A DNA stretch of 64,000 nt from the IMG/VR virus record IMGVR_UViG_2609459856_000007, positions 28,436 through 92,435 of that record; one strand, written 5' to 3'. The first letter of the stretch is position 1, and every line of letters begins with the position of its first letter. This document shows positions 5,294-55,974 of the stretch, in pieces. A program made the translations under genes and the position numbers. This stretch comes from a virus. Lineage: Duplodnaviria; Heunggongvirae; Uroviricota; Caudoviricetes. The notes beneath the pieces are model-generated. The model was not told where the DNA came from and searched no databases. It saw only the letters and a list, made by a program, of their open reading frames with translations.

Positions 5294-6868
5294 ATGGAAT
5301 TGACTGACAAGCAAATCAAAGACCTTGTGGCACGACGCCACCCAGAATATGAGAAGAAAAAAGAACATTGGGACTTCCTCGCCAGCACCTACGCTGGCGG
5401 GCGTGCCTGGTTCAACGACAATATCTTCCGTTACTTCAAAGAGGGCGATCAGGAGTTCAAAGAGCGCCTGGAACGCGCTTATCGCTTCAACCATACGCGC
5501 GAAGTGGTAAACCTCATCAACAAATACCTCTTCAAAGAGGTCATTCACCGCAACACTGATGAAGCACCGGAGCAGATCCGCAATTTCTGGAAGCGAGCCA
5601 CGCGCCAGAACGCCTCCATCGATGCGTTTATGGCGGCTATCGATCTGCAATCATCCATTTATGGCCGTATCTGGGTTGTCGTGGATAGCACGATGAACGT
5701 CGATGTTGAGTCTGTTGCAGACGAGAAGAAAAATGATGCGCGTGCCTACGCTTACTGGATTTCGCCGCAGCAGCTGCTTGATGTTGCCTGGGATGAAGAC
5801 GGCAATATGTTGTGGGCGCTGATTGTTGAAATCGCGCGCGACGACGAAGATCCGTTCACTTCAACCGGGCAGGAATACCAGCGTTACCGTCTGTGGACGC
5901 AAAACGAGTGGTATCTGTTCCGTGAAGAAGTGAAGAAGGGTTCCGGAAATAGCGGTCGCCGTCAGGCCAAAGTCGTTCTGGAGGATAGCGGCCAGCATAA
6001 TCTGGGCGTGGTGCCGGTGTTCCCGGTGGATTGCATTGGTGAAAGCGAGTCTCCGTATTTTAGCCCGTCGTTGATTGACGATATTGCCTATCTTGATCGC
6101 GCCGTGGCCAACTACCTGTCGAACCTTGACGCGATTATTCAGGATCAGACATTCAGCCAGTTAGCGATTCCGGTTCAGTCCCTGCTGCCGGGCGATGAAA
6201 ACCACACCAAAGTGCTCGAAATGGGGACAAAACGTGTCTTCACCTTCGATTCTGAGAGCGGTAATCAGCCATTCTATCTGTCTCCAGACCCGAAACAGGC
6301 TCAGATGATCATCACCACGATTAAGACGGTGATTAATGAGATCTACCATTCCGTTGGTGTGGCTGGTGAGCGAACCAAGCAGGATAACGCGCAGGGTATC
6401 GACAACTCTTCGGGGGCAGCGAAGATGTACGACTTCCAACGTATTAACAGTCTGTTGGTGACAAAAGCAGAGCGCCTCGAAAGGGCAGAACGCCAAATGA
6501 TGGAGTTGGCTGCGAAATGGATGGGCATCGAATTGGATGAAGACCACTCTCTGATCGCTTACCCGGAGAGTTTCGATATTCGTGGTCTGACTGACGAATT
6601 TGCCGTCGCTGAGAAATTGTCGCTGTTACAGGCGCCTGATTCTGTACGTCGTCATCAGATGGAAATGCTCATAGAAAAGATCTTCCCGAATATTTCCGAA
6701 GCGATGCAAAAGGAATTTAAAAAAGATCTCTTGAAATTTCCTCTAAAAAATGCTCCTGGCGCCCTTGAAAATAAGTCAGTACTTACTTATGATCGAGATA
6801 CAGTCCAAGAAAGCGGACAAGATCAACCCCGAGGGAATGGGGACTCATCTACTCAAGAGACCGAGTGA
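5294..6868 (+). CDS. putative portal protein
   Basis: 524 aa, no NTPase motif, immediately upstream of scaffold-like and capsid-like genes; assignment by size and position only. Confidence 0.5.
   Translation: MELTDKQIKDLVARRHPEYEKKKEHWDFLASTYAGGRAWFNDNIFRYFKEGDQEFKERLERAYRFNHTREVVNLINKYLFKEVIHRNTDEAPEQIRNFWKRATRQNASIDAFMAAIDLQSSIYGRIWVVVDSTMNVDVESVADEKKNDARAYAYWISPQQLLDVAWDEDGNMLWALIVEIARDDEDPFTSTGQEYQRYRLWTQNEWYLFREEVKKGSGNSGRRQAKVVLEDSGQHNLGVVPVFPVDCIGESESPYFSPSLIDDIAYLDRAVANYLSNLDAIIQDQTFSQLAIPVQSLLPGDENHTKVLEMGTKRVFTFDSESGNQPFYLSPDPKQAQMIITTIKTVINEIYHSVGVAGERTKQDNAQGIDNSSGAAKMYDFQRINSLLVTKAERLERAERQMMELAAKWMGIELDEDHSLIAYPESFDIRGLTDEFAVAEKLSLLQAPDSVRRHQMEMLIEKIFPNISEAMQKEFKKDLLKFPLKNAPGALENKSVLTYDRDTVQESGQDQPRGNGDSSTQETE
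6773..6790. promoter_or_regulatory. TAAGTA-n-TACTTA motif inside 3' end of portal-like gene, upstream of scaffold gene
   Basis: taagtcagtacttactta. Confidence 0.3.
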
Positions 6869-7813: not shown

Positions 7814-8689
7814 ATGCCATTACTGCGTGATGAAGCTGAAAAGCTGTCTAATAACGAACTTGAGCAGGGTGTGATCGAGACCATCATCGATCGCGATGAC
7901 CTGTTCGCTATTCTGCCTTTCATGAAGATTAATTCTAAGGCATACCTTTACAACCGCGAAGCTACCCTGAGCGAAGCTACCTTCATTGATGTGAACGACA
8001 CCATCACTGAAGGCGCAGCAACCTTCAGCGAACACGTTGCGAAGCTACGTATCCTGGCAGGCGACGTAGACGTCGACAAATTCCTGGCGACCACTATGTC
8101 CGACACCAACAACCAGCTGGCAATCCAGGTTCGTCAGAAGGTGAAAGGTCTGGCTCGCGCATTCCGCCGCAATCTGATTCTGGGCGACTCCAGCACCAAC
8201 ACCAAAGCGTTCGACGGTATTCCGAAACTGATGCACGACGATCAGAAGATCGACATCGAAGGCGCTTCCATGACCTTCTCCATGTTCGACGAACTGGTCG
8301 ACGCGGTGAAAGATCTGGGTGCGGACTGCATCATGATGCGCTCCGAGCATCTGCGTGCTTATCGCGCTCTGCTGCGTACCGTTAATATCGGCCCGTCCGA
8401 AATTATGATGGAAAACTTCGGTCGACCGATGTTGTGCCACAACGGTGTACCTTTCATCGTGAACGACTTCATCCCGACTGACGCGGGCAAAGCAAGCATC
8501 TACTGTCTGCACCTGTCCGAAGAGAACGGTGTGACCGGTCTGTATGGCGGTGAAAACGCTGGTATCGTTGTTGAGAACATCGGTACTGTTCAGAACAAAG
8601 ACGCAACCCGTACCCGCGTTAAGTGGTACTGCTCTCTGGCGAACAAGCACGACAAAGCTATCGCCGCGCTGACCAATGTAAAAATTTGA
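7814..8689 (+). CDS. putative major capsid protein
   Basis: 291 aa, position after scaffold, followed by strong terminator; no motif-level confirmation. Confidence 0.5.
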   Translation: MPLLRDEAEKLSNNELEQGVIETIIDRDDLFAILPFMKINSKAYLYNREATLSEATFIDVNDTITEGAATFSEHVAKLRILAGDVDVDKFLATTMSDTNNQLAIQVRQKVKGLARAFRRNLILGDSSTNTKAFDGIPKLMHDDQKIDIEGASMTFSMFDELVDAVKDLGADCIMMRSEHLRAYRALLRTVNIGPSEIMMENFGRPMLCHNGVPFIVNDFIPTDAGKASIYCLHLSEENGVTGLYGGENAGIVVENIGTVQNKDATRTRVKWYCSLANKHDKAIAALTNVKI

Positions 8690-8702
8690 TCAGAATGATA
8701 GG

Positions 8703-8720
8703 TAAGTAGTTATCTACTTA
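8703..8720. promoter_or_regulatory. TAAGTA-n-TACTTA motif
   Basis: taagtagttatctactta. Confidence 0.35.
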
Positions 8721-8723
8721 ATA

Positions 8724-8751
8724 TGGGTGGGCTATACGCCCACCTTTTTTG
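8724..8751 (+). terminator. rho-independent terminator after capsid gene
   Basis: GGGTGGGC-tatac-GCCCACC stem followed by TTTTTT. Confidence 0.65.
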
Positions 8752-8763
8752 TAGGAGCGATAA

Positions 8764-9090
8764 ATGCCAGAACAAAAGATGAAAATCATGGAGGAGACGT
8801 TTGCGGATTTCACAGGGCATATGTGCCGTGCCGGATTCACCAACTCCGTCTCCAACGAGCCTCTGAGCGAGCGCCAGCAGAACCATCTTGCGGCTTGCTT
8901 CCGGACAGTTCCGTTCACGCAGTCTGTCAGCGTGGAGTCTGTTGCTCTGACTCCTGATTCTGTCTCTGTTGAGAAGGGGAAGTCAGTCAAATTGCGAGTT
9001 GATGTGCAACCGTCAAACGCAACCAATCAAAAAGTCACCTGGACTTCTCAAAATAGCGACAAAGCGACCGTGGATCAGAACGGTATCTGA
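8764..9090 (+). CDS. bacterial Ig-like (Big_2) domain protein
   Basis: RBS GGAG; C-terminal SVSVEKGKSVKLRVDVQPSNATNQKVTWTSQNSDKATVDQNG matches Big_2 pattern. Confidence 0.65.
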   Translation: MPEQKMKIMEETFADFTGHMCRAGFTNSVSNEPLSERQQNHLAACFRTVPFTQSVSVESVALTPDSVSVEKGKSVKLRVDVQPSNATNQKVTWTSQNSDKATVDQNGI

Positions 9091-10252
9091 AGAAAAAAAC
9101 GCCCGAGCAACTGCCGACGAATCTTTGGCACAACAGATAACTACATTGAAGAGTCAAACGGGCAAGGATATTAAGGCGGCTGTAGCTGAAGAGACGAAAG
9201 CCAGAACTGATGCTGATTCCGCTTTGGCTTCTAATATCACTAATCTACAGGCTCAAACGAGCAAAGATATTCATGCTGCGATTACATCTGAAGCGACTGC
9301 GCGTACAAGCGCCGACAATGCACTAAGTGGGAGAGTTGACACCTTAAAAGCATCAGTAGATGGAAATACAGCAACAATTCAACAACAGGCCACAGCTATT
9401 GCTGATACGAACAAGAAGGTATCAACAGCCTGGACGCTGAAAATGGAAACCTCCACCAGCGGAGGCCAAAAATATGTTGCCGGCATAGCGTTGGGCATCG
9501 ACACAACAGGTCTATCGCAGTTTTTGGTGCAGGCAGATCGCTTTGGTTTGGTGAACTCCGTTAATGGGAAAATTACAACGCCATTCGTTATTGATGCCGG
9601 TGTGGCTTATATGAACGGAGCTTATATCAAGAACGGCACCATTGATAACGCCAAAATAGGCAACTTCATTCAGTCCAACGATTACTCAAGCGGGATGACG
9701 GGGTGGCATATTAATAAAAACGGGAACTCAGAGTTTAACAATGTAACTGTTAGAGGCACCGTTTACGCAACGAATGGCAAATTCACAGGAGAAATACAGG
9801 CTACCAGCGGAACATTCAGAGGCACGGTACAAGCAGATCACTTCGTAGGCGATGTCGCTAACATGTATGTGGGCAATGACTTCTCAGTTCGTTACAACGG
9901 CACATATACAATGACATATACAGACTCTTCTTCGTCTGCATTGCCCAAAAATATTTATGTGGCAATAAATGTATATACGGGGGGCGTCGGCCCTGTTGCA
10001 GCCCAATTTACCTGCAATGGAGTGACGAAGACCGCAACCACTGGTAAGGGGACAACATACAGAGACCCTGATCTTAATTCAACAAGATCTACAGGCGTCG
10101 GTGGCACTCTTTACGCTGCTTTTAACAATGTTACCTCAAGAACTGTTGCTGTTACGGTAAAAGTGACCAGTTCATCACAGACACATATTTATTCGCCCGT
10201 GATGCTAATCAGCCGTGGAAGTGGCGCATTTTCCATGTCGGGCATCAGTTAA
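9086..10252 (+). CDS. fibrous virion protein ORF with no start codon of its own (+1 frame relative to 8764..9090); fusion by frameshift or disrupted gene
   Basis: Coiled-coil-like TxADxALA repeats then beta-rich C-terminal domain; no ATG/GTG/TTG with RBS in frame near 9086; A7 run at 9093-9099. Confidence 0.45.
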   Translation, partial: SEEKNARATADESLAQQITTLKSQTGKDIKAAVAEETKARTDADSALASNITNLQAQTSKDIHAAITSEATARTSADNALSGRVDTLKASVDGNTATIQQQATAIADTNKKVSTAWTLKMETSTSGGQKYVAGIALGIDTTGLSQFLVQADRFGLVNSVNGKITTPFVIDAGVAYMNGAYIKNGTIDNAKIGNFIQSNDYSSGMTGWHINKNGNSEFNNVTVRGTVYATNGKFTGEIQATSGTFRGTVQADHFVGDVANMYVGNDFSVRYNGTYTMTYTDSSSSALPKNIYVAINVYTGGVGPVAAQFTCNGVTKTATTGKGTTYRDPDLNSTRSTGVGGTLYAAFNNVTSRTVAVTVKVTSSSQTHIYSPVMLISRGSGAFSMSGIS

Positions 10253-10323
10253 TTGATGGGAATAATGAGCAGCAATGTATACAGCGTGTTTTCTTAGTGC
10301 AAAAGGATTTTGTATCATGGATA

Positions 10324-10344
10324 ATAAGTAAGTATATACCTATT
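10324..10344. promoter_or_regulatory. ATAAGTAAGTAnATACCTATT motif, followed by hairpin 10346-10367
   Basis: Near-identical 21-mer also at 17735-17755. Confidence 0.4.
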
Positions 10345-10387
10345 TGTGTGGGCAAGGACGCCCACACTTCAAGGAGTGAAAAAGAAC

Positions 10388-13300
10388 ATGTGGTACAGGG
10401 AAGGTACTGTTACATTTACAAAAGGAAGCGACACAATATCAGGCATCGGAACACGTTGGAATTTGACCGAAAACGGCGTGTTACCGGGCATGATTGTCAT
10501 TGGTCCTGACAATAAGTTGTATGAGGTCAAGCGCGTAACCAGTGATACGGTCATTGTCCTCTCAGAACCTTATACCGGCGAAACTCAATCTAAAGTTCCG
10601 TGCCGAATCATTACGACCTATGAAGGCGACTTAACTCAGTTTAGTGCGCGCTTTACTGCACTAATGTCGCGTATGTCGGCTGATTCCAAGTCCATGCGCA
10701 GTTGGTTGACCGCTCTGGATGATGTGACAATCGAGCGTGAAGACGGTACAGAAGTGACCGTTAAGCCGCTAATGCAGATCGTCAACGAGCATAACGAAAA
10801 CGTTGAGTGGTATAAAAATAACACCGATGCGATTGAGGCCGCTGGAGACAAAGCTCGGGAGGCGGCGGCCAGTGCTGTCGCTGCGGCAGAAAGTGCCAAC
10901 ACTGCTGTAGAAAAAGCCTCTCAGGCATCTCAAAGTGCATCCGCTGCGGTATCTTCACAAAGTGCGGCGAGTGAGAGTGCAGCTGCTGCGGAAAAATCTG
11001 AAACAAACGCAGAAGCGGCAAAAGAAGCGGCAGCAGAATCAGCATCTGTGGCGTCGACTAAAGCATCGGAGGCAGCCACATCAGCGTCCAGTGCCTCTGC
11101 ATCTAAGGATGCGGCTAAATTATCAGAGACTAACGCTTCATCGAGTGCAAACGCGGCAGCATCATCAGCTACAGAAGCTGCAAATTCATGTAAGGCAGCA
11201 AAAGCATCAGAGACAAACGCAAAAGCGTCTGAAGCTGCTGCCGAACAGAGTGCATTGTCTGCAAACAGTTCGAAATCTGCGGCAGAAACGTCAGCGAGCG
11301 CGGCCTCAGTAAGCGCGGATAGTGCTTCATCAAGTGCAACGTCGGCAGAAAAGTCTGCGGAAAGCGCTTCGTTATCCGCGGCAAATGCCACCGCTAAAGC
11401 GACAGAGGCGACGAAACAGGCAACAGCTGCGGAAAAGTCAGCAGAGGCGGCAAAATCTTCTGAAACCAATGCAAAGACTTCAGAAGACAATGCCGCTGCT
11501 TCTAAGGAGACAGCAGCCGAATCTGCAAGCTCTGCCTCTGTTTCAGCTTCCTCGGCGTCATCTTCAAAAGATGAGGCCGCTCGCCAGGCGTCAGCGGCAG
11601 CAGAGAGTGCGACAACGGCATCAACGAAGGCGACGGAAGCGGCAGACAGTGCGACGGCGGCTGCGCAGAGCAAAAATGCGGCAGAATCCGCGGCAACACG
11701 CTCTGAGACAGCGGCAAAACGAGCTGAGGATATTGCATCCGCCGTGGCGCTTGAGGATGCAAGCACGACGAATAAGGGAATAGTACAACTTAGTAGCTCA
11801 ACTAATAGCGAATCGGAGTCATTTGCAGCCACCCCAAAAGCAGTAAAGACAGCATATGATCTTGCTAATGGCAAATACACTGCACAGGACGCCACCACGT
11901 CGCAAAAGGGGCTTGTTCAGCTTAACAGTGATACCAACAATAGCAGTGAAAGTTATGCGGCCACATCAAAGGCCGTGAAGGCCGCATACGACAATGCTGA
12001 AACACGCCTTCGGAAAGACCAGAATGGCGCGGATATACCTAGCAAAGACACCTTCGCAAAAAATATTGGCGCAGCGAAAGCTGCTGGCGGCAGTATCAGT
12101 ATTGGGGGAGACAGCAACAACTGGACGACGGCGCAATTTATTGAGTGGTTGGAGTCTCAGGGGGCATTCAATTATCCATACTGGATGTGCAAAGGCTCTT
12201 GGTCTTACGCTGCCAATAAAATCATCACGGATACCGGTTGTGGGAATATACAACTCGCTGGCGCTGTAGTTGAAGTTATGGGGGTTCGGGATGCTATGAC
12301 GATTCGCGTCACTACCCCCACGACGGCAACGAATGGCGGAACCGTCAAGGCTCAGTTTACCTACATCAACCACGGTGACTCTTATGCGCCAGGCTGGAGG
12401 CGCGACTTTAATCGAGCTGGCGATTCAATGTCAGGCCAATTGACTTTGGCGAATATGTCGCAGCCATTAAGATCACCTGGTGGTGGTATATTTGCCAATG
12501 ATGGCAACGTGTATATCAATAAACCGGGTTTCGCTGGATGGATTGATGCACTCTTTTTGAAATTAACCGGAGGAACTTTAACCGGGTCACTTGGATTTCA
12601 AAATTCAAACGGGAAAGTATTCAGGGTGCAGACTACTGAAACTCCGTCACTGAATACTTATATGCAGGTATGGGGAAATTCTTCAAGGCCAACGGTAATT
12701 GAATTCAAAGACGATCAAGGCTATCACTTTTACAGTCAGAGAAACACTGACAATACTATTACAATGAGTATAAATGGAGAGGTGGTTTCCGAAACAGCAA
12801 ATGCTTTCCGTGCAGTATATGGGAATTATGGCTTCTTCATTCGAAATGATGGGGCGAATACTTACTTTCTGTTGACAAATTCAGGTGATCAACATGGAAG
12901 TTGGGGACCTTTACGTCCACTATATATTAGCAATACAACAGGACGAGTGACACTTGGAAATGGCGTTGATATTAGTAATGGGGCAGTAATTAACGGTAGC
13001 GTCGGATTAGGGGTGTCGAATGCGCTTGGCGGAAACTCTATCGTATTAGGCGATAATGATACTGGCTTAAAACAGAATGGTGATGGCATTCTTGATGTTT
13101 ATGCAAATAATGCCCATGTTTTTCGGTTCACTAATGGCACGTTGCAAAGTCTTAAGCCGTTGAGTGTAACGGGGGATATCACGTCAAGTGCATGGGTTTA
13201 TGCCAACAGCTACTCTATCAACAGCGGTTCTGGCGCATGGATCGATATGCGGAGCCAGAACGTCATCTTCGGGAAGAATGCTGTAAGCACAAGCTCTGCA

Positions 13301-13777
13301 CAAGCGTTGTTGAGACAAGACCACGCGGATCGCAAATTCTTTGTGGGTGGCTTGGGAAACAGTCAGTTTGGTTTTTACATGATCAACAACTCACGTACCG
13401 CGAATGGCACGGATGCGAACGCATATCTTCAAAATGATGGTACTTGGGTTTGTGGAGGTAATGGTAACTTTAACGATGTTTATATCCGCTCTGATGCCAG
13501 ACTTAAAAGTAACTTCGCACCGATTAAAAATGCTCTGAGTAAGGTGAAAGTACTGAGCGGATTAATTTACGATAAAAAGGAAAATTTTCAATCTAGTACG
13601 GTTCGTCGTGAGGCGGGTGTTGTTGCTCAGGAACTCCAAAAGGTTTTACCGGAAGCTGTTTCAGCTTACAAAGATGCAAATGGCGAAGATGTTCTGACTA
13701 TTTCAAATTCTGCACAAATAGCACTTCTTATTGAGGCTGTTAAAGAGCTGGCAGCAATCATTGAACAAAAAATATGA
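10388..13777 (+). CDS. tail fibre protein with C-terminal intramolecular chaperone (peptidase S74-like) domain
   Basis: RBS AAGGAG before ATG 10388; long Ala/Ser-rich low-complexity region; fibre repeats (TNKGIVQLSSSTNSESESFAATPKAVKTAYD, twice); C-terminal DARLKSNF...VAQELQKVLPEAV...IALLIEAVKELAAIIEQ. Confidence 0.8.
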   Translation: MWYREGTVTFTKGSDTISGIGTRWNLTENGVLPGMIVIGPDNKLYEVKRVTSDTVIVLSEPYTGETQSKVPCRIITTYEGDLTQFSARFTALMSRMSADSKSMRSWLTALDDVTIEREDGTEVTVKPLMQIVNEHNENVEWYKNNTDAIEAAGDKAREAAASAVAAAESANTAVEKASQASQSASAAVSSQSAASESAAAAEKSETNAEAAKEAAAESASVASTKASEAATSASSASASKDAAKLSETNASSSANAAASSATEAANSCKAAKASETNAKASEAAAEQSALSANSSKSAAETSASAASVSADSASSSATSAEKSAESASLSAANATAKATEATKQATAAEKSAEAAKSSETNAKTSEDNAAASKETAAESASSASVSASSASSSKDEAARQASAAAESATTASTKATEAADSATAAAQSKNAAESAATRSETAAKRAEDIASAVALEDASTTNKGIVQLSSSTNSESESFAATPKAVKTAYDLANGKYTAQDATTSQKGLVQLNSDTNNSSESYAATSKAVKAAYDNAETRLRKDQNGADIPSKDTFAKNIGAAKAAGGSISIGGDSNNWTTAQFIEWLESQGAFNYPYWMCKGSWSYAANKIITDTGCGNIQLAGAVVEVMGVRDAMTIRVTTPTTATNGGTVKAQFTYINHGDSYAPGWRRDFNRAGDSMSGQLTLANMSQPLRSPGGGIFANDGNVYINKPGFAGWIDALFLKLTGGTLTGSLGFQNSNGKVFRVQTTETPSLNTYMQVWGNSSRPTVIEFKDDQGYHFYSQRNTDNTITMSINGEVVSETANAFRAVYGNYGFFIRNDGANTYFLLTNSGDQHGSWGPLRPLYISNTTGRVTLGNGVDISNGAVINGSVGLGVSNALGGNSIVLGDNDTGLKQNGDGILDVYANNAHVFRFTNGTLQSLKPLSVTGDITSSAWVYANSYSINSGSGAWIDMRSQNVIFGKNAVSTSSAQALLRQDHADRKFFVGGLGNSQFGFYMINNSRTANGTDANAYLQNDGTWVCGGNGNFNDVYIRSDARLKSNFAPIKNALSKVKVLSGLIYDKKENFQSSTVRREAGVVAQELQKVLPEAVSAYKDANGEDVLTISNSAQIALLIEAVKELAAIIEQKI

Positions 13778-13839
13778 TAATGTTGGAGAGGCTAAGACCT
13801 CTCCCATAATAAACTGTCATAATATTTGAGAGGGTTATT

Positions 13840-14097
13840 GTGTCAATTTCAAATGTTCCAGGATGGATAGGATCATCAGCGGTTTCCGAAACAGGGCAAC
13901 GTTGGATGAGTGCTGCCCGTATTGGCCTTGCACAAATTGCTGACGTTATGCCTCAAGTTTCTGCCGCAATGGATAAAGCGCAAGGCAATATCTCCAGTGG
14001 AGATACGGTACGCATCATCTTTGGCGTAGCTACCATTCTTGTGGCAGCATTCATTGCCTGGTCCCAGGTTCGCAAGCACCAGAAAGGATTAGTGTAA
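13840..14097 (+). CDS. small membrane protein, possible holin
   Basis: GTG start; one TM helix IIFGVATILVAAFIAW; directly upstream of spanin genes. Confidence 0.35.
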   Translation: MSISNVPGWIGSSAVSETGQRWMSAARIGLAQIADVMPQVSAAMDKAQGNISSGDTVRIIFGVATILVAAFIAWSQVRKHQKGLV

Positions 14098-14099
14098 GT

Positions 14100-14351
14100 A
14101 TGTTCGACGGCCTGTTGTTCAAAATGAAATCCGCTTTGTTCACTCTGGCCGCCGTCATTCTAGTCCTTGTCGGCGCATACTCCTATGGCGGGGATATGGC
14201 CAGACGCAGTATGGAAGAGAAAGAACGGCGGGAAGATAACAAGCGTCTTCAAAGCACAGTGGAAGTGGTGAATGAGACGAACAGTGAAATACGTCAGAAA
14301 GATGCTTCTGCCATTCATCGTGAGCTGCATGATAAGTGGGTGCGTAATTAA
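14100..14351 (+). CDS. Rz-like inner-membrane spanin (i-spanin)
   Basis: N-terminal TM anchor, charged coiled-coil periplasmic region; embedded overlapping lipoprotein ORF. Confidence 0.6.
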   Translation: MFDGLLFKMKSALFTLAAVILVLVGAYSYGGDMARRSMEEKERREDNKRLQSTVEVVNETNSEIRQKDASAIHRELHDKWVRN

Positions 14352-17755: not shown

Positions 17756-17858
17756 AAAGGGAATCATGTGAGCCAGATCTTCTTCAACACTATCGACAAT
17801 GACCAGTACGATTTCATGACAGAGTGGAATACTGATACCGGTTTACGATCTGGATGGC

Positions 17859-24605: not shown

Positions 24606-24680
24606 GATGGTGTAGCTCAGTGGTAGAGCGGTTGACTGTTAATCAACTGGTCGGTGGTTCGAGTCCACCCACCATCGCCA
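24606..24680 (+). tRNA. tRNA-Asn (anticodon GTT), CCA encoded
   Basis: Cloverleaf: acceptor GATGGTG/CACCATC, D-arm GCTC..GAGC, anticodon stem GTTGA/TCAAC with loop CTGTTAA, T-arm GGTGG-TTCGAGT-CCACC, discriminator G, CCA. Confidence 0.9.
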
Positions 24681-24759: not shown

Positions 24760-24873
24760 GTGATAGACACGGCAGACGTTTTTTAACCATTGCTTCTAAG
24801 CATCGTAGCAACACTTTTTTCAGCGCAAAATCCAAAGGGGCTTCGGCCCCTTTTTGCTATCTTATCTCTTGGT

Positions 24874-25653
24874 AATATGGGAAACAAACGTAAACAGGCG
24901 CGTCGCGCAGTCCGACAGGCACTGAAGTCAAAGCCACGTATCCAGGACTACGAAATTGATACAATCATCGTTAACGAGCAGGCTGTACACCCTACTCTGC
25001 CACCCACCAAGCCTAAACGCGACAAATCCCCCATCGAAGCGCTTAACGAGGCCCAGGCTCACTATCTTATCTCCCTAGATACCAAAGCTCTGACTTTCGC
25101 CACTGGTGAAGCAGGTTGCGGTAAGACTTACCTGGCTGCCACCGTCGCTGCGCAGCGTCTGTTGGATAAGGAAGTCGAGAAGATCATCGTTACGCGTCCC
25201 GTATTGCAAGCAGAAGAAGATCTGGGCTTCCTTCCGGGTGACATGAGCGAGAAGTTCGCTCCGTTCTTTCGTCCCGTTTATGACGTGCTAAAGAAGCGTT
25301 TGGGTGGCTCATTCCTTGAATATTGCTTAAAGCCAGAGGTGGCCAAAGTAGAAATTGCTCCCTTCGCTTATATGCGTGGGCGCACGTTCGAGAACGCAGT
25401 AGTCATTCTTGATGAGGCGCAAAACGTTACAGCGTCACAAATGAAAATGTTCCTGACCCGTATGGACGAGAATGTTACCGTCATTGTGAACGGTGATATT
25501 ACTCAATGTGATCTGCCCGGTAACGTTAAGTCTGGTCTGGAAGATGCTCTGGCTCGTTTTAGACCTTCCGCCCATGTTGGCCTTGTTGAGTTTACGACCG
25601 AAGACTGCGTGCGATCAGAACTATGCAAAATCGCACTGGAAGCCTATCAGTAA
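24874..25653 (+). CDS. phoH: PhoH-family ATPase
   Basis: Walker A GEAGCGKT, Walker B-like VVILDEAQ; ORF track start 24790 is upstream of likely ATG 24874. Confidence 0.8.
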   Translation, partial: NMGNKRKQARRAVRQALKSKPRIQDYEIDTIIVNEQAVHPTLPPTKPKRDKSPIEALNEAQAHYLISLDTKALTFATGEAGCGKTYLAATVAAQRLLDKEVEKIIVTRPVLQAEEDLGFLPGDMSEKFAPFFRPVYDVLKKRLGGSFLEYCLKPEVAKVEIAPFAYMRGRTFENAVVILDEAQNVTASQMKMFLTRMDENVTVIVNGDITQCDLPGNVKSGLEDALARFRPSAHVGLVEFTTEDCVRSELCKIALEAYQ

Positions 25654-26667: not shown

Positions 26668-26802
26668 GATTAATGGGTTAATTGTCCTTTTTAAATATGA
26701 TACCAGATTCAATTAGACCGCGTAAAAACGCCTTACATTTGCTCCCCTTATATTAGCGGTAGATTTCACGCCGACGGCTACTTTTTTTAAAAATAGCGGC
26801 CT

Positions 26803-26837
26803 AAATGATTCCATACTTGTAAGGTATGGAATCATTT
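26803..26837. promoter_or_regulatory. perfect 14-bp inverted repeat with 7-bp spacer, candidate recombinase core site or operator
   Basis: AAATGATTCCATAC-ttgtaag-GTATGGAATCATTT, about 100 bp upstream of tyrosine recombinase gene. Confidence 0.45.
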
Positions 26838-26935
26838 TCAAAAACAGTCTATTTTACTGTTGATCATACAAAAACTGAGGCCTAACACACTGTTTATAAA
26901 TACAGTAAAAACAGGCTTCACTCAGTGAGTGGACT

Positions 26936-28039
26936 ATGAAAAACACTTTTGATAAAGCACGCGCAGCAGAAAACACCTCTAGAGAAGCCATCGAGTATCT
27001 CGAACGCGCTTCCGGTTTGTCAGCAGTGTCGACCACCAATTTCGACGGTGACATGTCGTTTTCTTCCGCATTCATGTTATTCACTCGCTTATCTTTGCTG
27101 ATAACGAGACGTCGACCTGAAATAGCTGTTCATTGTATTTTGATACATGTAATGCCGCATATCTGTGAAGTAAAAGTAAGTGACATTAGTAGGGTTTTAG
27201 TCAACCAGCTGGTGAACCCATTAATACTTGAGGGCAAGATCGTCCAGGGCAGACGTGTGTTCTCGCTGATGAAGCAGTTTCTCAGTTGGTGTGCATTTCA
27301 GGGCTTAATTGATACATCCCCATTGAACGATATGTCGCTTAACAGAGTAGCCGGTGGCGCGAAGCCCACGCCGCGCGAGCGCAAACTGACCGACGCAGAG
27401 GTCTGGGTCTTTTGGAATGTATGGGACTACTTCAACGTATGTGAGGGTACAAAGTGGGCGGCCAGATTATGCCTTGTAGCGGCCAGACGACCAGATGAAG
27501 TGCTCCGAGCTAAAAGATCAGAATTCAACCTCGAATATAATTTATGGAATCAAGGAACGAGGAATAAATCGGCTCGCCAGCACTCGTTACCATTAAGCCC
27601 GCTAATGCGCAAATGTGTTGAGGAGCTGATCAAATACGGAAAAGGCAGCCAGTGGCTTGTTCCTTCAAACAAGAAACAGGGGGAGGATGTGCCAATGTCT
27701 AAGGTGGCCATATCACAGGCGTTGAGAAGGATTTTAGAACGTCCAGAGTTGATGGAGCTTGAGCCATTTACCCCCCGAGATTTGCGTCGTACTGCGCGTA
27801 GTTACTTCCCCGCGTTAGGCATAAGTCAGGAGGTATCCCGCAAAATTATGAACCATAGTCTTGAGGGGATAGATCGAGTATACGATCGGCACGATTATAT
27901 AGACGAGATGCGAGACGCCTTAAACAGTTTTTCGGCGTACATCGCATCAATCGTAGAGAAACAGGATTTAGAGGAGATAGATCATAAGTTCAAGGGAGAT
28001 CGACTCGCTACTGAGCTAATCCGTGTAAATTTCTCATAG
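26936..28039 (+). CDS. tyrosine recombinase / phage integrase family protein
   Basis: C-terminal catalytic region with conserved Arg, LRRTA box, MNHS and RVYDRHDY. Confidence 0.75.
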   Translation: MKNTFDKARAAENTSREAIEYLERASGLSAVSTTNFDGDMSFSSAFMLFTRLSLLITRRRPEIAVHCILIHVMPHICEVKVSDISRVLVNQLVNPLILEGKIVQGRRVFSLMKQFLSWCAFQGLIDTSPLNDMSLNRVAGGAKPTPRERKLTDAEVWVFWNVWDYFNVCEGTKWAARLCLVAARRPDEVLRAKRSEFNLEYNLWNQGTRNKSARQHSLPLSPLMRKCVEELIKYGKGSQWLVPSNKKQGEDVPMSKVAISQALRRILERPELMELEPFTPRDLRRTARSYFPALGISQEVSRKIMNHSLEGIDRVYDRHDYIDEMRDALNSFSAYIASIVEKQDLEEIDHKFKGDRLATELIRVNFS

Positions 28040-28423
28040 CGACTTGATTGCCTCAACAACCCGCTCCGACGCACCACGTTGGTCACCGAAACGTCGACGG
28101 AAGGCTTCCAGAACTAGTTTTTCATCTTTAGTCAGAGGGGCTGTGCCTTCGTCGCGAAAAAACGCTAACAGCTCTGGATGACGCTCTTCCAGCACCATTA
28201 GCATCAATCGGACCGAATCGGCATCCAATGCTTTAGCCAACGCTCTGACCTTGTCGATCGGAAGCGGGATTTTGCCGCTCTTGATAAGTGAAAGATTGTT
28301 AGGATTTTTATAGCCTGCTTCTTTCGCGATGGTCGCCTGGCTTTTCGGAGAAATCGCGATTAAAGCGTCAATGTAAGCAGCGTAGCGACCTACTTTAGCT
28401 TCTGTTATTTCGTTGGTAGCCAT
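28034..28423 (-). CDS. helix-turn-helix transcriptional regulator (XRE-like), possible repressor
   Basis: ATIAKEAGYKNPNNLSLIKSGK HTH; divergent from small ORF 28680. Confidence 0.6.
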   Translation of the reverse strand: MATNEITEAKVGRYAAYIDALIAISPKSQATIAKEAGYKNPNNLSLIKSGKIPLPIDKVRALAKALDADSVRLMLMVLEERHPELLAFFRDEGTAPLTKDEKLVLEAFRRRFGDQRGASERVVEAIKSL

Positions 28424-28455
28424 AATTATCAACCTGCGTGTTTTGATTTTATATG

Positions 28456-28469
28456 GTAAGTGCTTACTG
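28456..28469. promoter_or_regulatory. TAAGTG-CTTAC palindromic motif upstream of HTH gene
   Basis: ggtaagtgcttact. Confidence 0.35.
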
Positions 28470-28679
28470 ATATTACATCAAAGGTTAGTGTTGTAAAGAC
28501 TTATCTATTTTTTTTCGTAGAGTTATTGACCACAAAAGGCTTAATTAATAGACAACTATCTAAAAAACAACTCATTTAAGAACTTAAAACTAAGTTGTAT
28601 TTGATATATAAGTATTCCGTATTGATACAATAGGTAGTAGTATTGCAAGGCATTTACGTGTTCAGTTGGATGATATGAA

Positions 28680-28892
28680 ATGAAAAAAATAACTTCTAAT
28701 TTGATCGCCCTTGAGGTCGGACATACGGTTTCAATTGACGATGATGGGGCAGCAGCCATACTCACTGAACTGCCAACAAAGTCTTTGTTACTTGACATGA
28801 AAGACGCAACCGCATACATCTTTGAGCTAAAGGGCAAGTGCTTCACTCTCATCAATACCGGCTGCGGTTCAGTAGCCGTCCGCACTATTTAA
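28680..28892 (+). CDS. hypothetical small protein
   Basis: 70-aa ORF divergent from regulator gene. Confidence 0.3.
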   Translation: MKKITSNLIALEVGHTVSIDDDGAAAILTELPTKSLLLDMKDATAYIFELKGKCFTLINTGCGSVAVRTI

Positions 28893-29004
28893 CACCCCCC
28901 TCCCATCCTCTCTAGCGCCTGTACGAACAGATTAGATGCCTGTTCGTACAGTGATAAATTACGCACATCAGAAAACAAATTGTTTTAACAACAAGGAAAT
29001 TCTA

Positions 29005-29103
29005 ATGTCCAAAAAAACCACCAAAGCTGTACTGAAAGAGGTGCAGGATTTTCGCGACTGTGTAAAACGAGTTGTAGCGATGCTTTCAGGTAAACAGATA
29101 TGA
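29005..29103 (+). CDS. 32-aa ORF translationally coupled to vWA gene
   Basis: RBS AAGGAAA; stop TGA overlaps ATG of 29100 gene. Confidence 0.3.
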   Translation: MSKKTTKAVLKEVQDFRDCVKRVVAMLSGKQI

Positions 29104-30650
29104 AAGACAAGCCAGAGGGCAAATTACCAGAACTTAAATCATCTGCCAGAAAGCCGTCGGAGAGCAAAGACGAGTCCGAGGAAACGCCAGAATCAGGTGA
29201 CGAGCCGTCTCATGGTGACTCTGCATCTAAGCCTGCCAAAGGCGAAGGCGATGACAAGGAAGAACGAGAAGATGATGCATCAGAAGAGGAAGATTCTGGG
29301 GATTCCGATTTGCCTGATTCGTTAGATAAGGACTTACCTACACACGTTAAAGATATTAGTGATACAGAAAGTAAATATACAGAAGCAGGCCACGAAGAGT
29401 CAGGAGACACCCCAGAATCCGATGCTATCGGCATGAAATCAAGTGACTCTGACACCGATGGTGATGACGGTGAGGACTCCGATACTGATCGTGGGGAAAC
29501 TGAAGAAGACGTCGAAGGCAAAAAAAATAAAGATGGTGCGGAAGTGCCCAAAGACAGTGAGTCTGGCTTTGTTCCTGCGCCGGATGAAATGACTCTGGAG
29601 GAGGCGCTAAAGGCGCTCGACGAGATGGAAGACGGAATCGGTGAAATGACCGAAGACGCACTGTCGGCCACCATCAGCAAAGAGCTTATGAGCGTCTCAC
29701 CTTCTGATTATCGGCCATACGATCGATCATACGACTTTATCGGGTTGATTGATGGAGCCGAAGAGCATGTGAAGCGCACCAGAAAGACGTTCGGTGCAAT
29801 ACCAATGCACTCACCAGTCGACCGCTACCGTATGGTGCCAGAAGGCAGAAAACTCTTTGAACTGAAAATCGAAAAACATCTGTCTGCAGGCGTTTCTTCG
29901 ACGCTGGCCAAAGACCTGGAGCGGGCCATCGCCAGCCGCAACCGAGTTCAGTTTATACCTGGTCAGAGGCGTGGGCGGATACATGGCGCGAGCCTGTATC
30001 GTCTGGCAATGAACGACGACCGAGTGTTCCGCAAGAAGGAAGACCATAGAGCGGTGAACGCGTGTGTCCAGCAGGTCATCGACTTGTCCGGCTCAATGGA
30101 TGGCGTGAAGATTCAACTGGCCCTAGCCAGTGCCTATACCATTGCGGATGCTTTAGATCGTATCAATGTCCCCAACATCATCACCGGCTTTACCACGTTC
30201 GGTAGCCCAGATTATGAAACCAGGTCGAAGCGCGGGTTTACACGCTTCGAGGCGCTCATGCTGCCCATTATCAAAAACTGGAATGAGAAAGCAAACTCTC
30301 CAGAGATCCGTGCTCGCATGGGATGCGTATGTGAGACGTTCCCCCTGCTCAATAACGTCGATGGTGAGAGTGTCGCGCAACTGGCTACCCTGTTTGCAGG
30401 GCGAATGGAGGACAAAAAGATCATGCTGGTTATGAGTGATGGGGAGCCATGTGCTACAGGTAGTGGATTCCATCAGCATTTACGAACCGTCACCAAAGAA
30501 ATTGAGACCTTGAGCGACATCGAACTGATGGCTATCGGCATTCTGACCGACGAACCACGGCGTTACTACAAAAATTACGCACTGGTTAACAGTGTTGAAG
30601 AGTTAGGGCCGTCAGTCGTCACTGAGTTATCTCGTATCATTCTTGGGTAA
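29100..30650 (+). CDS. von Willebrand factor A domain protein (CobT-like)
   Basis: About 180-aa acidic N-terminal region; MIDAS-like DLSGSM; vWA fold. Confidence 0.75.
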   Translation: MKDKPEGKLPELKSSARKPSESKDESEETPESGDEPSHGDSASKPAKGEGDDKEEREDDASEEEDSGDSDLPDSLDKDLPTHVKDISDTESKYTEAGHEESGDTPESDAIGMKSSDSDTDGDDGEDSDTDRGETEEDVEGKKNKDGAEVPKDSESGFVPAPDEMTLEEALKALDEMEDGIGEMTEDALSATISKELMSVSPSDYRPYDRSYDFIGLIDGAEEHVKRTRKTFGAIPMHSPVDRYRMVPEGRKLFELKIEKHLSAGVSSTLAKDLERAIASRNRVQFIPGQRRGRIHGASLYRLAMNDDRVFRKKEDHRAVNACVQQVIDLSGSMDGVKIQLALASAYTIADALDRINVPNIITGFTTFGSPDYETRSKRGFTRFEALMLPIIKNWNEKANSPEIRARMGCVCETFPLLNNVDGESVAQLATLFAGRMEDKKIMLVMSDGEPCATGSGFHQHLRTVTKEIETLSDIELMAIGILTDEPRRYYKNYALVNSVEELGPSVVTELSRIILG

Positions 30651-30667
30651 TAGCTTTACCCTTAAAA

Positions 30668-30685
30668 ATAAGTAACTGCTTACTA
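30668..30685. promoter_or_regulatory. TAAGTA-n-CTTACT motif
   Basis: ataagtaactgcttacta. Confidence 0.35.
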
Positions 30686-30745
30686 TACAGCATAATATAT
30701 TTCTATAAGATATACCCCACAAACGACAAACAGTAAGGAAAAAAC

Positions 30746-31981
30746 ATGACCGCTACTGCACTACAGCAAGAAGAACATTTGCCGGAAGCCATCGTCTGCA
30801 AGTGGTGTGGCAAATCCTTTCATTACCTGAAATCCCATATCTCTATGGGCCGTTGCGAGAATATTCCTGAGTCTGCGAAGGGTCTGGACGTGGACGAAGT
30901 GGTGAAGATGTACACCTCTGCGTTTCCAGATGAACCAACGATCTCTCGCACGGCACTGGCCAAACTCAATGAGAAGCGTGCCGAAAAAAATTCATGCGAA
31001 GGAAAGGTAGCGGAGATTAGCGCACATCCGGGCTACGCAGGAACGGTCGAATACAAGACCGAACTGGTGGCCGCGCACGAGCTGCTTGGCGTAACGATCA
31101 AAGAGCTGGGAACGTCACGCGGAAAGCCACTACAGGTGACAGTCAACGTCAACACGCCCTATCCGGAGTTCGTACCGGAAGCGAAGAAAAACTATGTGTA
31201 TGGCGACTTCGACCTGATCAAAGACATCTTTATGATGCTGGAAATCGGAATCCCGGGTTATCTCTGGGGCCATGCAGGAACCGGTAAATCTTCTCTTCCT
31301 ACGCAGCTATGTGCCCTGCTAAATCGACCACTGATCCGCGCCCAGCATACGGCATCTATGGAGGAAGCGCACGTTACAGGCCAGATCCTCGCTCGCGATG
31401 GTTCCACCTATTTCGAACCGGGTTTACTAGCGCTGGCGATGAAAAATGGTTGGGTTTACCTCGCTGATGAATATGACTTCGCGTTCCCGCAGATTCTGGG
31501 TGTGTATCAGCCAGTTCTTGAAGGAGAGCCGCTGATCATCAAAGAGGCAACTGCGGACTGGCGCCGCATCACCCCGCATAAACGCTTTGCCTTCATTGGC
31601 ACTGGCAACACTAACGGCTCTGGCGACGAAACAGGTCTCTATCAAGGCACAAACATCCAGAACGCAGCGAACTTCTCGCGTTTTGGCATTGTTTCAAACG
31701 TGAAGTACATGAGTACGAAGGCAGAAGTCAACATGCTGGCTGAAGCAGGCGTCATCCGCGAATACGCCGAGAAGATGGTGAAGTTCGCGAATCTTATCCG
31801 TGAAGGTTATGAAAAGCATCAGATTAGCCAGCCAATCGGGCCTCGTGAGCTGCTGCTGTCCGCCAAAATCGGAATGATGCGCGGTGATTTCTCTGCCGGC
31901 ATCGAAAAGTCGTTTATCAATAAACTTCCATCCACGTCTGCACAGGCAGCGCGTGAAGTGGTTCAGAAGATCTTTGGTTAA
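30746..31981 (+). CDS. AAA+ ATPase, MoxR/CobS-like
   Basis: Walker [10 protein letters not shown], Walker B VYLADEYD; N-terminal [20 protein letters not shown] zinc-finger-like motif. Confidence 0.8.
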
Positions 31982-31983
31982 TC

Positions 31984-32385
31984 GTGCGTAACTGGCTAAT
32001 GAATGGCGGACAATGGTTCTTCATGCTGGACACTGATCAGGAAATATTAGCCTGGGCGCTGGTGGAGCTGGTAAAGCGTCTGCCCTATATCATTGAGTTG
32101 AACACCGGGCAAGAAACTATCGTTATAGCCCATGCCGACTATCCGGATAATGAATACCAATTCGGTAAGGAGGTGCCGCTTTTCAACGTTGTCTGGGCGC
32201 GCGAGCGTATCAGTGATTCGATGGATGATATTGGTGGCGAAATTTCGGGCGCAGATCGTTTTATCTTTGGTCACACTCCGGTGAAAAGCCCGAAGACATT
32301 CTGGAATCAGCAGTATATCGACACTGGTGCCGTATTTTGCGGAAACCTGACATTGATGAAAGTGAAAGGTGATGGTGCAGCATGA
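31984..32385 (+). pseudogene. ppp: 5'-truncated lambda-type Ser/Thr protein phosphatase (C-terminal half only)
   Basis: [10 protein letters not shown]...IVIAHADYP...FIFGHTP...[15 protein letters not shown] aligns to C-terminal half of lambda phosphatase; GDxHG/GDxxDR/GNHE motifs absent; GTG start 3 nt after AAA+ stop. Confidence 0.6.
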
Positions 32386-54835: not shown

Positions 54836-54964
54836 TTAATGCGCTTTAAACCCCGCCGCAGTCATGAGCAGGCGAAAAAACATGCCCACCGCCGCCAGCG
54901 CCAACACGCTGCCGCCCCAAAGGATGACCAGCCACATCAGGCGTTTCCAGAGAGAATGTTGCAT
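54836..54964 (-). CDS. CydX-like small membrane subunit (42 aa)
   Basis: MQHSLWKRLMWLVILWGGSVLALAAVGMFFRLLMTAAGFKAH; start overlaps subunit II stop by 1 nt. Confidence 0.5.
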   Translation of the reverse strand: MQHSLWKRLMWLVILWGGSVLALAAVGMFFRLLMTAAGFKAH

Positions 54965-55974
54965 CAGTGATACCCCTCGCCATGTTGCACTTTGCCGCGA
55001 AACACATAGTAACTCCAGAAGGTGTACACCAAAATCACCGGAATGATGAGCAGCGCACCGACCAGCATAAACCCCTGACTCTGGGCGGGGGCGGCTGCCT
55101 GCCAGAGGGTAACCGAAGGCGGAATAATGTGCGGCCAGATACTGATGCCCAGGCCGCTGAAACCAAGGAAGATTAGCCCGAGCGTCAGCACAAACGGAAA
55201 CGTGTGGTTTTCCGGACGACCCAGTGTGCGCCATAACCAGACGCTGAACGCGATCACCAGCACCGGAACCGGCAGCAGATAGCCCAGGTTGGGAAGCGTA
55301 AACCAACGGTCGGCGATCGCCGGATGCGCTAACGGTGTCCAGAGGCTGATTATCGCAATTGACAACAGCAGGGCCAGCAGCAGTTTTTTCGCGACGCTGC
55401 GCATTTTATCCTGAAGCGGATTTTCGCTTTTCATCACCAGCCAGGTTGCGCCTAAGAGCGCATAGGCAACGACCAGTCCGACGCCACAGAACAGAGTGAA
55501 GGGGGTTAACCAGTCGAACGGCCCGCCGCTGTAGCTGCGACCGGTCACCGGGAAACCGTTGATCACTGCGCCAACCACGATCCCTGGGGCGAAGGTAGCC
55601 AGAATCGACCCGCCGAGAAAAGCATGGTCCCAAAATGGGCGGTGGGCTGGCGTGGCCTTGAAGCGAAACTCGAAGGCCACGCCGCGAAAAATCAGTCCGA
55701 TCAGCATCAGCGTCAACGGAATGGTCAGCGCATCGATAATAACCGCATAGGCCATCGGGAAAGCCCCAAACAGCCCCGCGCCGCCCAGCACCAGCCAGGT
55801 TTCATTACCGTCCCACACCGGCGCGACGCTATTGACCATCACATCACGATCCTCTGCGTTTCGTGTGACAGGAAACAGAATGCCAATACCCAAATCGAAT
55901 CCATCCATCACGATATACATTAGCGTGGCGAAAACGATGATCACAAACCAGATAACCGATAAATCAATACCCAT
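54964..55974 (-). CDS. cytochrome bd-type quinol oxidase subunit II (CydB/CioB-like)
   Basis: 336-aa polytopic membrane protein coupled to subunit I. Confidence 0.8.
   Translation of the reverse strand: MGIDLSVIWFVIIVFATLMYIVMDGFDLGIGILFPVTRNAEDRDVMVNSVAPVWDGNETWLVLGGAGLFGAFPMAYAVIIDALTIPLTLMLIGLIFRGVAFEFRFKATPAHRPFWDHAFLGGSILATFAPGIVVGAVINGFPVTGRSYSGGPFDWLTPFTLFCGVGLVVAYALLGATWLVMKSENPLQDKMRSVAKKLLLALLLSIAIISLWTPLAHPAIADRWFTLPNLGYLLPVPVLVIAFSVWLWRTLGRPENHTFPFVLTLGLIFLGFSGLGISIWPHIIPPSVTLWQAAAPAQSQGFMLVGALLIIPVILVYTFWSYYVFRGKVQHGEGYH

Follow-up and report, generated by a model that had tools for sequence, protein, structure and literature searches.

The window analysed here is a stretch of 64,000 nucleotides (nt) from a tailed virus of the Caudoviricetes (IMG/VR record IMGVR_UViG_2609459856_000007, positions 28,436 to 92,435), and the locus considered, positions 29005 to 31981 of that window, encodes a vWA-domain protein followed by a MoxR/CobS-like AAA+ ATPase, a pair of the kind that is labelled CobT/CobS in phages. 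This gene pair is already well known as the phage "CobT/CobS-like" family of the SSU5-type phage-plasmids; in SSU5 and in E. coli plasmids the genes are annotated as [quoted passage not shown] and "AAA family ATPase", and are followed by dnaE. Taken as a whole, the best explanation of the locus, and one that is held to be very likely, is that it represents the cobT-like/cobS-like pair of an SSU5-type phage-plasmid, damaged, and carried in a degraded SSU5::P1 hybrid replicon. The features of the locus are as follows:

29005-29103, plus strand: open reading frame (ORF) of 32 amino acids (aa), the cut-off 5' part of the cobT-like gene, with the native start, 32 codons and then TGA
29097..29100: deletion joint flanked on each side by GATA microhomology; intact relatives have 583 bp more here (194 codons + 1 nt)
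29100-30650, plus strand: 516-aa ORF, what remains of the cobT-like gene on the 3' side (residues 227-742), opening at an internal Met
about 29136-29567, plus strand: acidic disordered linker within the 516-aa remnant
about 30024-30647, plus strand: CobT_C (vWA) domain within the 516-aa remnant, with the MIDAS DxSxS at 30084-30098
30746-31981, plus strand: cobS-like MoxR-class AAA+ ATPase, 411 aa, intact
about 30791-30985, plus strand: N-terminal putative zinc-finger domain of Ros/MucR type in the cobS-like gene
31268-31291, plus strand: Walker A GHAGTGKS of the cobS-like gene
31466-31471, plus strand: Walker B DE of the cobS-like gene, which also has a CbbQ_C-like lid
31983..31991: recombination joint, SSU5-like to the left and P1-like to the right, with an imperfect 8-9-nt microhomology (GTGCGTAA / GTGAATAA)
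31984-32385, plus strand: phosphatase ORF of 133 codons, a 3' remnant of P1 ppp (lambda-type Ser/Thr phosphatase) and not part of the cobTS unit

The three ORFs of 32, 516 and 411 aa lie where the first-pass annotation had placed them, but the first two are pieces of one gene, split by a microhomology-mediated deletion. In a BLAST comparison with plasmid NZ_CP010244.1, whose 99%-identical cobT-like gene product is 742 aa long, window positions 26802-29100 correspond to 8410-10707 and positions 29097-31991 to 11287-14181, and the 583-bp out-of-frame deletion removed residues 33-227 of the intact protein. The 32-codon stub shows no differences from codons 1-32 of the intact 742-aa gene in two relatives including NZ_CP010244.1, and it is homologous to residues 1-32 of SSU5_049, a protein of 781 aa that begins MSKAMTRSVLKEVQDFRDCVKRVVAMLSGKQI and stays in frame; the difference in length between the SSU5 and plasmid proteins (781 vs 742 aa) lies in the acidic linker, in a comparison that covers SSU5 only. 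As a result of the frameshift a TGA follows straight after codon 32 and is overlapped by the ATG of Met227, and this alone accounts for the "ATGA coupling" from which a separate leader ORF had been proposed. Thus the TGA/ATG overlap exists as described, but the supposed leader is the first 32 codons of the gene, cut off by the deletion, and a check of its conservation finds these codons in frame within a long ORF in the relatives and not as a separate ORF. An in-frame ATG at 28936 could lengthen the 32-codon ORF to 55 codons. Likewise the strongly acidic residues with which the 516-aa ORF begins, taken at first for an N-terminal region, really belong to the linker between the domains of a protein that is otherwise 742 aa long. 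Programmed frameshifting, or a naturally split gene, was considered and rejected because the DNA for the N-terminal domain is physically absent and not merely out of frame.

The intact form is general. A cobT-like protein of 742-744 aa with both PF06213 and PF11775 is found in all 120 best protein clusters, which are nearly identical to one another, on hundreds of contigs, and an open cobT-like ORF of 687-792 aa is present in 74 of 76 IMG/VR relatives, with residues 33-227 encoded in 75 of the 76; these relatives are close ones only, of 80-99% identity, and the diversity of homologues referred to below was taken from a separate representative search. Every PLSDB and complete-genome match listed breaks into at least two BLAST pieces across the deletion site. 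Among the IMG/VR relatives one has a premature stop in cobT at codon 248 and another has lost the N-terminal domain, so that occasional inactivation of cobT is not unique to the window. The broken allele itself recurs: the exact 516-aa protein occurs on 12 contigs, and the five of these that were inspected, draft NCBI or Logan assemblies from five samples, all carry cobS and the same truncated ppp joint, with the 32-codon stub separately called in four. Of these, GCA_000700365.1 (JNMN01000021.1) matches window positions 19100-40650 with 100% identity, and the others are 99.9% identical to the window but have differing left-hand breakpoints and cargo. The same allele and flanks in five samples point to a circulating hybrid lineage rather than an assembly error.

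What remains of the cobT-like protein is its linker and its vWA domain. The vWA domain, which had been recognized from the start, gives a Pfam CobT_C (PF11775) match of 6.9e-109, and its closest fold matches are the Rea1/MDN1 MIDAS domain and NorD; the MIDAS residues D555, S557, S559, T593 and D674 are invariant in 45 family sequences and are retained in the window remnant. The linker, residues 239-382 of the intact protein, is predicted to be disordered (pLDDT below 50 in the model), and an acidic linker is also present in solved cellular CobT. Compared with intact relatives the remnant has 1-3 synonymous substitutions and no non-synonymous ones, numbers so small that dN/dS is uninformative and selection on the remnant cannot be tested. 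A Ser-rich ORF of 156 aa runs antisense to the acidic linker (29210-29680, minus strand); most likely it is no gene but results from the skew of the codons towards GAN/GAA.

What was lost is most of a well-predicted N-terminal domain (model pLDDT about 90), in which a helix at residues 11-29 is followed in the model by three strands and then helices; the 32 codons of the stub supply the helix 11-29 of the intact-protein model. The residues of this domain are the most conserved of the family outside the MIDAS site: H77, E78, H81, E109, D110 and E114 never vary among 45 sequences that are 26-68% identical, and the HExxH motif is found in 146 of 147 representatives (50% clustering). PF06213 (CobT) is found in the intact protein (1.9e-35) and is missing from the window ORF, and phrog_1576 aligns with residues 7-741 of the intact relative. 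When the deleted domain was searched against PDB as a single sequence nothing meaningful came out, whereas a family profile reached solved CobT (5.6e-65). In a by-eye alignment anchored by that profile alignment, solved cellular CobT reads TRGLGDSMALRQ (SMALR) where the viral proteins read VRGFLDHEVAHI; the chelatase subunit thus appears to be without the HExxH that the viral family keeps. An N-terminal metallopeptidase domain was noted by Iyer et al. (PMC7824862) on jumbo-phage vWA partners of MoxR ATPases, and cyanophage cobT has often been annotated as a peptidase, an annotation that the authors of PMC8651126 call mistaken.

The partner ATPase gene is intact, and its earlier assignment as MoxR/CobS-like is borne out. 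The 411-aa protein matches Pfam AAA_5 (4.5e-15), phrog_249 from end to end (2.9e-108; residues 12-410 on profile positions 5-375 of 380) and, over residues 142-411, PDB CobS 9ujv_A (1.4e-25), and the top Foldseek folds of its model (pLDDT 89.5) are NorQ/CbbQ, with TM 0.84-0.87. The Walker A and B residues G175, G178, G180, K181, D241 and E242 are invariant in the CobS-like homologues, 33 of 44 of which have a detectable CbbQ_C. The first ~100 residues have no CobS counterpart and contain the Cys/His motif C18-x2-C21-x4-H26-x4-H31-x5-C37. A zinc-finger-like motif had been noted here from the letters alone, and although the H-x7-C spacing then given was inexact, the motif is real: C18, C21, H26 and H31 are invariant among 44 homologues of 42-89% identity, and C-x2-C-x9-H-x3-5-[HC] fits 93 of 110 homologues. 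ROS_MUCR (PF05443) of Pfam is matched by 16 of the 44 at E<=0.01 (best 1.3e-6), and the isolated N-termini of three homologues score 29-33 bits against a gathering threshold of 25.4, on the zinc-finger part of the model.

The N-terminal motif is therefore best described as a conserved match to the Ros/MucR zinc finger that is putative as to metal and DNA binding. The viral domain shares with Ros/MucR the C-x2-C-x9-H-x4-H spacing and a following helical region with conserved Tyr, Pro and Ser, and the homologue matches fall on the Pfam zinc-finger part at positions ~58-120. It differs in being fused to an AAA+ ATPase instead of constituting a small transcriptional regulator, and in having the extra invariant His26; moreover the SSU5 clade, within which C37 is kept, has this Cys as a candidate fourth ligand after a 5-residue spacer. 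A subgroup of the CobS homologues has C-x2-D in place of C-x2-C (e.g. CQLDG), and Asp for the second Cys has also been reported for some Ros homologues; CobS homologues of Xenorhabdus/Providencia type have a long insertion ahead of the last ligand. A literature search turned up no paper joining MucR or a zinc finger with CobS and phage.

Immediately beyond cobS the SSU5-like DNA ends, the last clearly SSU5-like base lying ~10 nt past the cobS stop codon. The phosphatase ORF at 31984-32385 does follow the pair, as the first-pass annotation had it, but it consists of the last ~131 codons of P1 ppp (99.3-99.8% identity to P1/P7 ppp over the last ~400 nt), begins at a fortuitous GTG and, compared with full-length Ppp, is without metallophosphoesterase motifs I-III (GDxHG, GDxxDRG, GNHE); a Pfam search of the 133-aa ORF gave no match. 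In 71 of 72 close relatives cobS is followed 100-200 nt downstream by dnaE, where the window has the P1 ppp fragment. The adjacency of the phosphatase is the product of illegitimate recombination only, and since the ppp remnant sits at a recombination joint and relatives have dnaE in its place, the suggested link to vWA-MoxR signalling is accidental.

The element as a whole is a decaying mosaic. By megablast, window positions 1-31991 are an SSU5-type phage-plasmid with ~99% identity to many E. coli plasmids and ~92% to Salmonella phage SSU5, and the DNA from 31983 onward is phage P1-like with 99% identity; the segment 29097-31991 by itself has ~99.4% nucleotide identity to E. coli plasmids and ~93% to SSU5 over the region shared with SSU5. 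Relative to NZ_CP010244.1 three further SSU5-like segments are gone, each with a 2-8 nt overlap at its joint:

~4998-5005: deletion joint, ~2.1 kb lost, comprising the small terminase gene and the greater part of the large terminase gene
9084-9085: deletion joint, 14.8 kb lost, comprising tail genes including the tape measure
17827-17832: deletion joint, 2.7 kb lost, comprising the DnaB-like helicase gene of the reference

The cobT lesion is one among several decay events of this element, which cannot make SSU5-type virions. An ORF at 8969-10252 is a fusion made by one of the deletion joints and ends in a tail-tip domain. Recombination between phage-plasmids giving chimeric or defective elements has been described (PMC12977533), and the hybrid or defective phage-plasmids of P1, SSU5 and related types present the same phenomenon as the element in the window. 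The particular SSU5::P1 joint and deletion set of the window were not found in PLSDB nor among the complete E. coli genome matches listed; no PLSDB plasmid, and none of those genome matches, spans the joint.

Upstream of the pair the window contains the following features:

24606-24680: tRNA-Asn
24790-25653: PhoH, after the tRNA-Asn
26936-28039: tyrosine integrase, between the tRNA-Asn and cobT
28034-28432, minus strand: XRE-type repressor, divergent
28680-28892: small ORF of phrog_2627, upstream of the cobT-like gene
28919..28951: perfect 12-nt inverted repeat, CTGTACGAACAG-N9-CTGTTCGTACAG, 54 nt upstream of the cobT-like start

The integrase/repressor module between the tRNA-Asn and cobT is present in the E. 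coli relatives and in distant prophages but not in phage SSU5, and att-like direct repeats were looked for around it, from the tRNA-Asn to cobT, without any being found. The 12-nt inverted repeat is identical in SSU5 (6043-6075), occurs as a single copy in the window and is absent from distant relatives; it may serve as an operator or form an RNA hairpin. Scans for promoters and terminators gave sites no commoner than in shuffled sequence. Two further segments of the window stand apart in composition. A GC-richer one within the P1-like part encodes cytochrome bd oxidase (subunit I 55974-57374, subunit II 54964-55974, minus strand), an unusual respiratory cargo for a phage-plasmid, and a low-GC one near the window end encodes a 1165-aa autotransporter (59850-63347, minus strand) with pertactin-like passenger, autochaperone and beta-domain.

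Other accounts of the broken locus have to be set against a decayed gene. One account builds on the first-pass annotation: the 32-aa ORF would be a leader peptide that controls the vWA gene through translational coupling, and the pair would make up, with the phosphatase, a vWA-MoxR signalling or conflict system. The overlap is real, and ribosomes are known to terminate and reinitiate at such overlaps; moreover vWA-MoxR ternary systems exist (Kaur et al. 2020, PMC7159879). Against this, the 32 codons are the N-terminus of a long ORF in essentially all relatives and the overlap was made by the 583-bp deletion, the phosphatase is a catalytically gutted ppp fragment, and the conserved linked third component of the ternary systems is not found, for relatives have dnaE and no phosphatase after cobS; in addition no PADLOC defence model matches either protein. 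This proposal is accordingly given almost no credence. No more can be said for the idea that both the deletion and the SSU5/P1 joint are chimeric misassemblies. It draws on the absence of the joint from PLSDB plasmids, and of deletion or joint from the PLSDB and complete-genome matches listed, but the arrangement is shared by independent NCBI and Logan assemblies of five samples with different outer breakpoints, and the 4-9-nt microhomologies at the joints typify illegitimate recombination and not k-mer-length repeats; a misassembly is thus extremely improbable. A selected variant deserves somewhat more weight, although it too is considered unlikely. According to this explanation the linker+vWA protein is functional in the hybrid plasmid, for example as a CobS regulator or as a MIDAS adaptor for the plasmid state. 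The allele persists on 12 contigs, with diversified flanks in the five inspected, each from its own sample; the ORF is open over 516 codons with no non-synonymous changes relative to intact relatives; and a native ribosome-binding site is well placed upstream, so that the ATGA overlap could drive translation. However, 1-3 synonymous differences are too few to show selection, the contigs may be clonally related, different cobT lesions occur in two other IMG/VR relatives, and similar microhomology deletions took the terminase and tail genes, which makes decay the simpler reading.

Turning to the function of the intact pair, the nearest known system is the cobaltochelatase CobNST (EC 6.6.1.2; PDB 9ujv, 9uka, 21vt, 21vu), with which the viral pair shares a homologous AAA+ ATPase and, in the intact form, a likewise three-part partner composed of a PF06213 N-terminal domain, an acidic linker and a vWA domain with MIDAS. 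The differences are an HExxH in the viral CobT-like N-terminal domain where solved CobT has SMALR, ~100 extra N-terminal residues with the putative zinc finger on the viral CobS-like protein, and scores that fall far below the NCBIfam equivalog cut-offs, namely 85.4 bits against 558.55 for TIGR01650 (CobS) and, for TIGR01651 (CobT), 76.7 bits for the window ORF and 75.4 for the intact relative against 759. There is no CobN in the window, where the sole ORFs of more than 700 aa are a tail fibre and the autotransporter, and none is annotated in the 113-kb SSU5-like reference plasmid; the neighbours of the pair in relatives are replication genes, with no cobalamin-pathway context. Judged by these sequence comparisons the pair is not an orthologous cobaltochelatase, and clear orthology in a cobalamin setting, which would have undone the reading of the first-pass annotation, did not emerge.

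The alternative that these are nevertheless true cobaltochelatase subunits, acting as auxiliary metabolic genes that use host CobN to raise cobalamin in infection, follows the proposal of Liu et al. 2021 (PMC8651126) that viral cobST are cobalamin-boosting genes. In its favour are the best solved-structure relatives, CobS and, by profile, CobT, as well as the shared architecture of PF06213, acidic linker and CobT_C; against it stand each of the differences just listed and the location of the genes within a replication operon and not beside metabolic genes. E. coli is not known to have a de novo corrin pathway, and neither E. coli nor Salmonella is known to use a CobN-type chelatase, so that the hosts would offer no CobN, which also weighs against this alternative; the chelatase of Salmonella is the early-insertion enzyme CbiK. 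A chelatase role is consequently regarded as quite improbable.

Comparison across the family suggests a different role. The SSU5-type pair (SSU5_049/050; WP_074014831.1, WP_023135733.1; PHROG 1576, PHROG 249) has the same gene order and the same cobS protein as the window, and in the plasmids the same upstream integrase, repressor and small-ORF module; the window differs in that its cobT-like gene lost codons 33-227 with a frameshift and that P1 DNA replaces dnaE. In all six of six distant loci, whose CobS is 44-49% identical, the order is cobT, cobS, 0-4 small ORFs, dnaE and gp32, running on to the 5'-3' exonuclease and recA in those loci whose retrieved DNA is long enough, and cobT-cobS are the first large genes of this rightward operon. 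A divergent repressor or lysogeny module precedes the pair in most of the six, and four of them adjoin host genes and resemble integrated prophages. The dnaE of the distant loci is often fused to a UDG domain, and a sigma-70 region-2-like ORF at times lies between cobS and dnaE in distant relatives. With the MoxR/vWA pairs NorQ-NorD, CbbQ-CbbO, RavA-ViaA and Rea1/midasin the window shares an AAA_5/CbbQ-type ATPase with intact Walker A/B and an adjacent vWA protein with intact MIDAS (DxSxS...T...D); the viral client would be a different one, and the HExxH domain and zinc finger are apparent additions.

By analogy with such pairs, the CobS-like protein would form a MoxR-class hexameric ATPase ring, as do CobS, NorQ and CbbQ, on which the vWA/MIDAS domain of the CobT-like protein may dock. 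The ring would then drive the remodelling of a client protein and possibly its HExxH-dependent cleavage, with the zinc finger on the ATPase serving as a DNA or client tether. Complex formation and ATP-dependent client remodelling are inferred from homologues with solved complexes (NorQ-NorD). Because of its promoter-proximal place in an operon of early genes (dnaE, gp32, 5'-3' exonuclease, recA), the pair would be expected to act early in lytic development, on the side of replication or host takeover. It is fairly probable that the intact pair is a MoxR/vWA remodeller that does not chelate cobalt; that it is a replication-linked version of this mechanism is a good deal more tentative, and is thought somewhat doubtful. 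In the window the adaptor is without its conserved N-terminal domain, so that the machine is probably crippled; most likely it does not work normally, and at best termination-reinitiation at the ATGA would yield a linker+vWA fragment lacking the effector domain.

A competing function is that of an assembly chaperone, the structural proteins being folded or processed by a MoxR-vWA chaperone/co-chaperone that includes a peptidase domain. Such a role has been proposed for jumbo phages, where Iyer et al. 2021 (PMC7824862) describe the same architecture of a MoxR AAA+ protein plus a vWA protein with N-terminal metallopeptidase; MoxR-vWA proteins are reported to be required for tail assembly of the Acidianus two-tailed virus; and NorQD and CbbQO, whose folds match the viral proteins, are maturation factors. 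In this lineage, however, the genes open the replication operon next to a repressor, a long way from the head and tail genes, and a zinc finger of DNA-binding type is unexpected on a capsid or tail chaperone, so that this function is rated an outside chance, albeit ahead of the chelatase. No better placed is a more far-reaching version of the remodeller reading, according to which the pair would be no chelatase and large temperate phages would express first, from the early operon, a DNA-tethered AAA+ remodeller-protease, made of a MoxR ring bearing the Ros/MucR zinc finger and a vWA-MIDAS adaptor with an active HExxH domain, that reprograms the host replisome, nucleoid proteins or defences for DnaE-based replication, the truncated allele being kept in hybrids via ATGA reinitiation since it would still modulate the ATPase; as a whole this is improbable.

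Several points weigh against the preferred reading, that of a decayed allele of a MoxR/vWA remodeller that may be linked to replication. The substitution pattern of the remnant fits a recent deletion but equally fits retained function. The predicted "zincin-like" nature of the N-terminal domain is based on the invariance of the motif, the order of secondary structure elements, a weak PHROG "peptidase" match (8.8e-5) and PMC7824862. The zinc-finger region of the window protein itself scores a sub-threshold 12.7 bits against ROS_MUCR, and the Ros/MucR assignment of this copy is therefore made by alignment with homologues. The dnaE synteny comes from one broad phage lineage and may reflect shared ancestry rather than functional coupling; T4-like cyanophages, reported to carry cobST (PMC8651126), lie outside the comparison within which the linkage was seen. 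Lastly, the literature searched contains no functional study of phage cobST, only proposals at the level of annotation.

The leader ORF, the acidic N-terminus and the linked phosphatase of this locus are scars of deletion and recombination, and should not be catalogued as regulatory or signalling features. The residual value of the locus lies in a sharper description of the viral CobS/CobT-like family. Tailed-phage genes annotated "CobS/CobT" or "porphyrin biosynthesis" can be told from a real chelatase by the invariant HExxH domain on the vWA protein, by the Ros/MucR-type putative zinc finger on the ATPase and, in this lineage, by their constant place at the start of the replication operon, and these three features suggest concrete mutations and assays by which the function of the genes may be tested.

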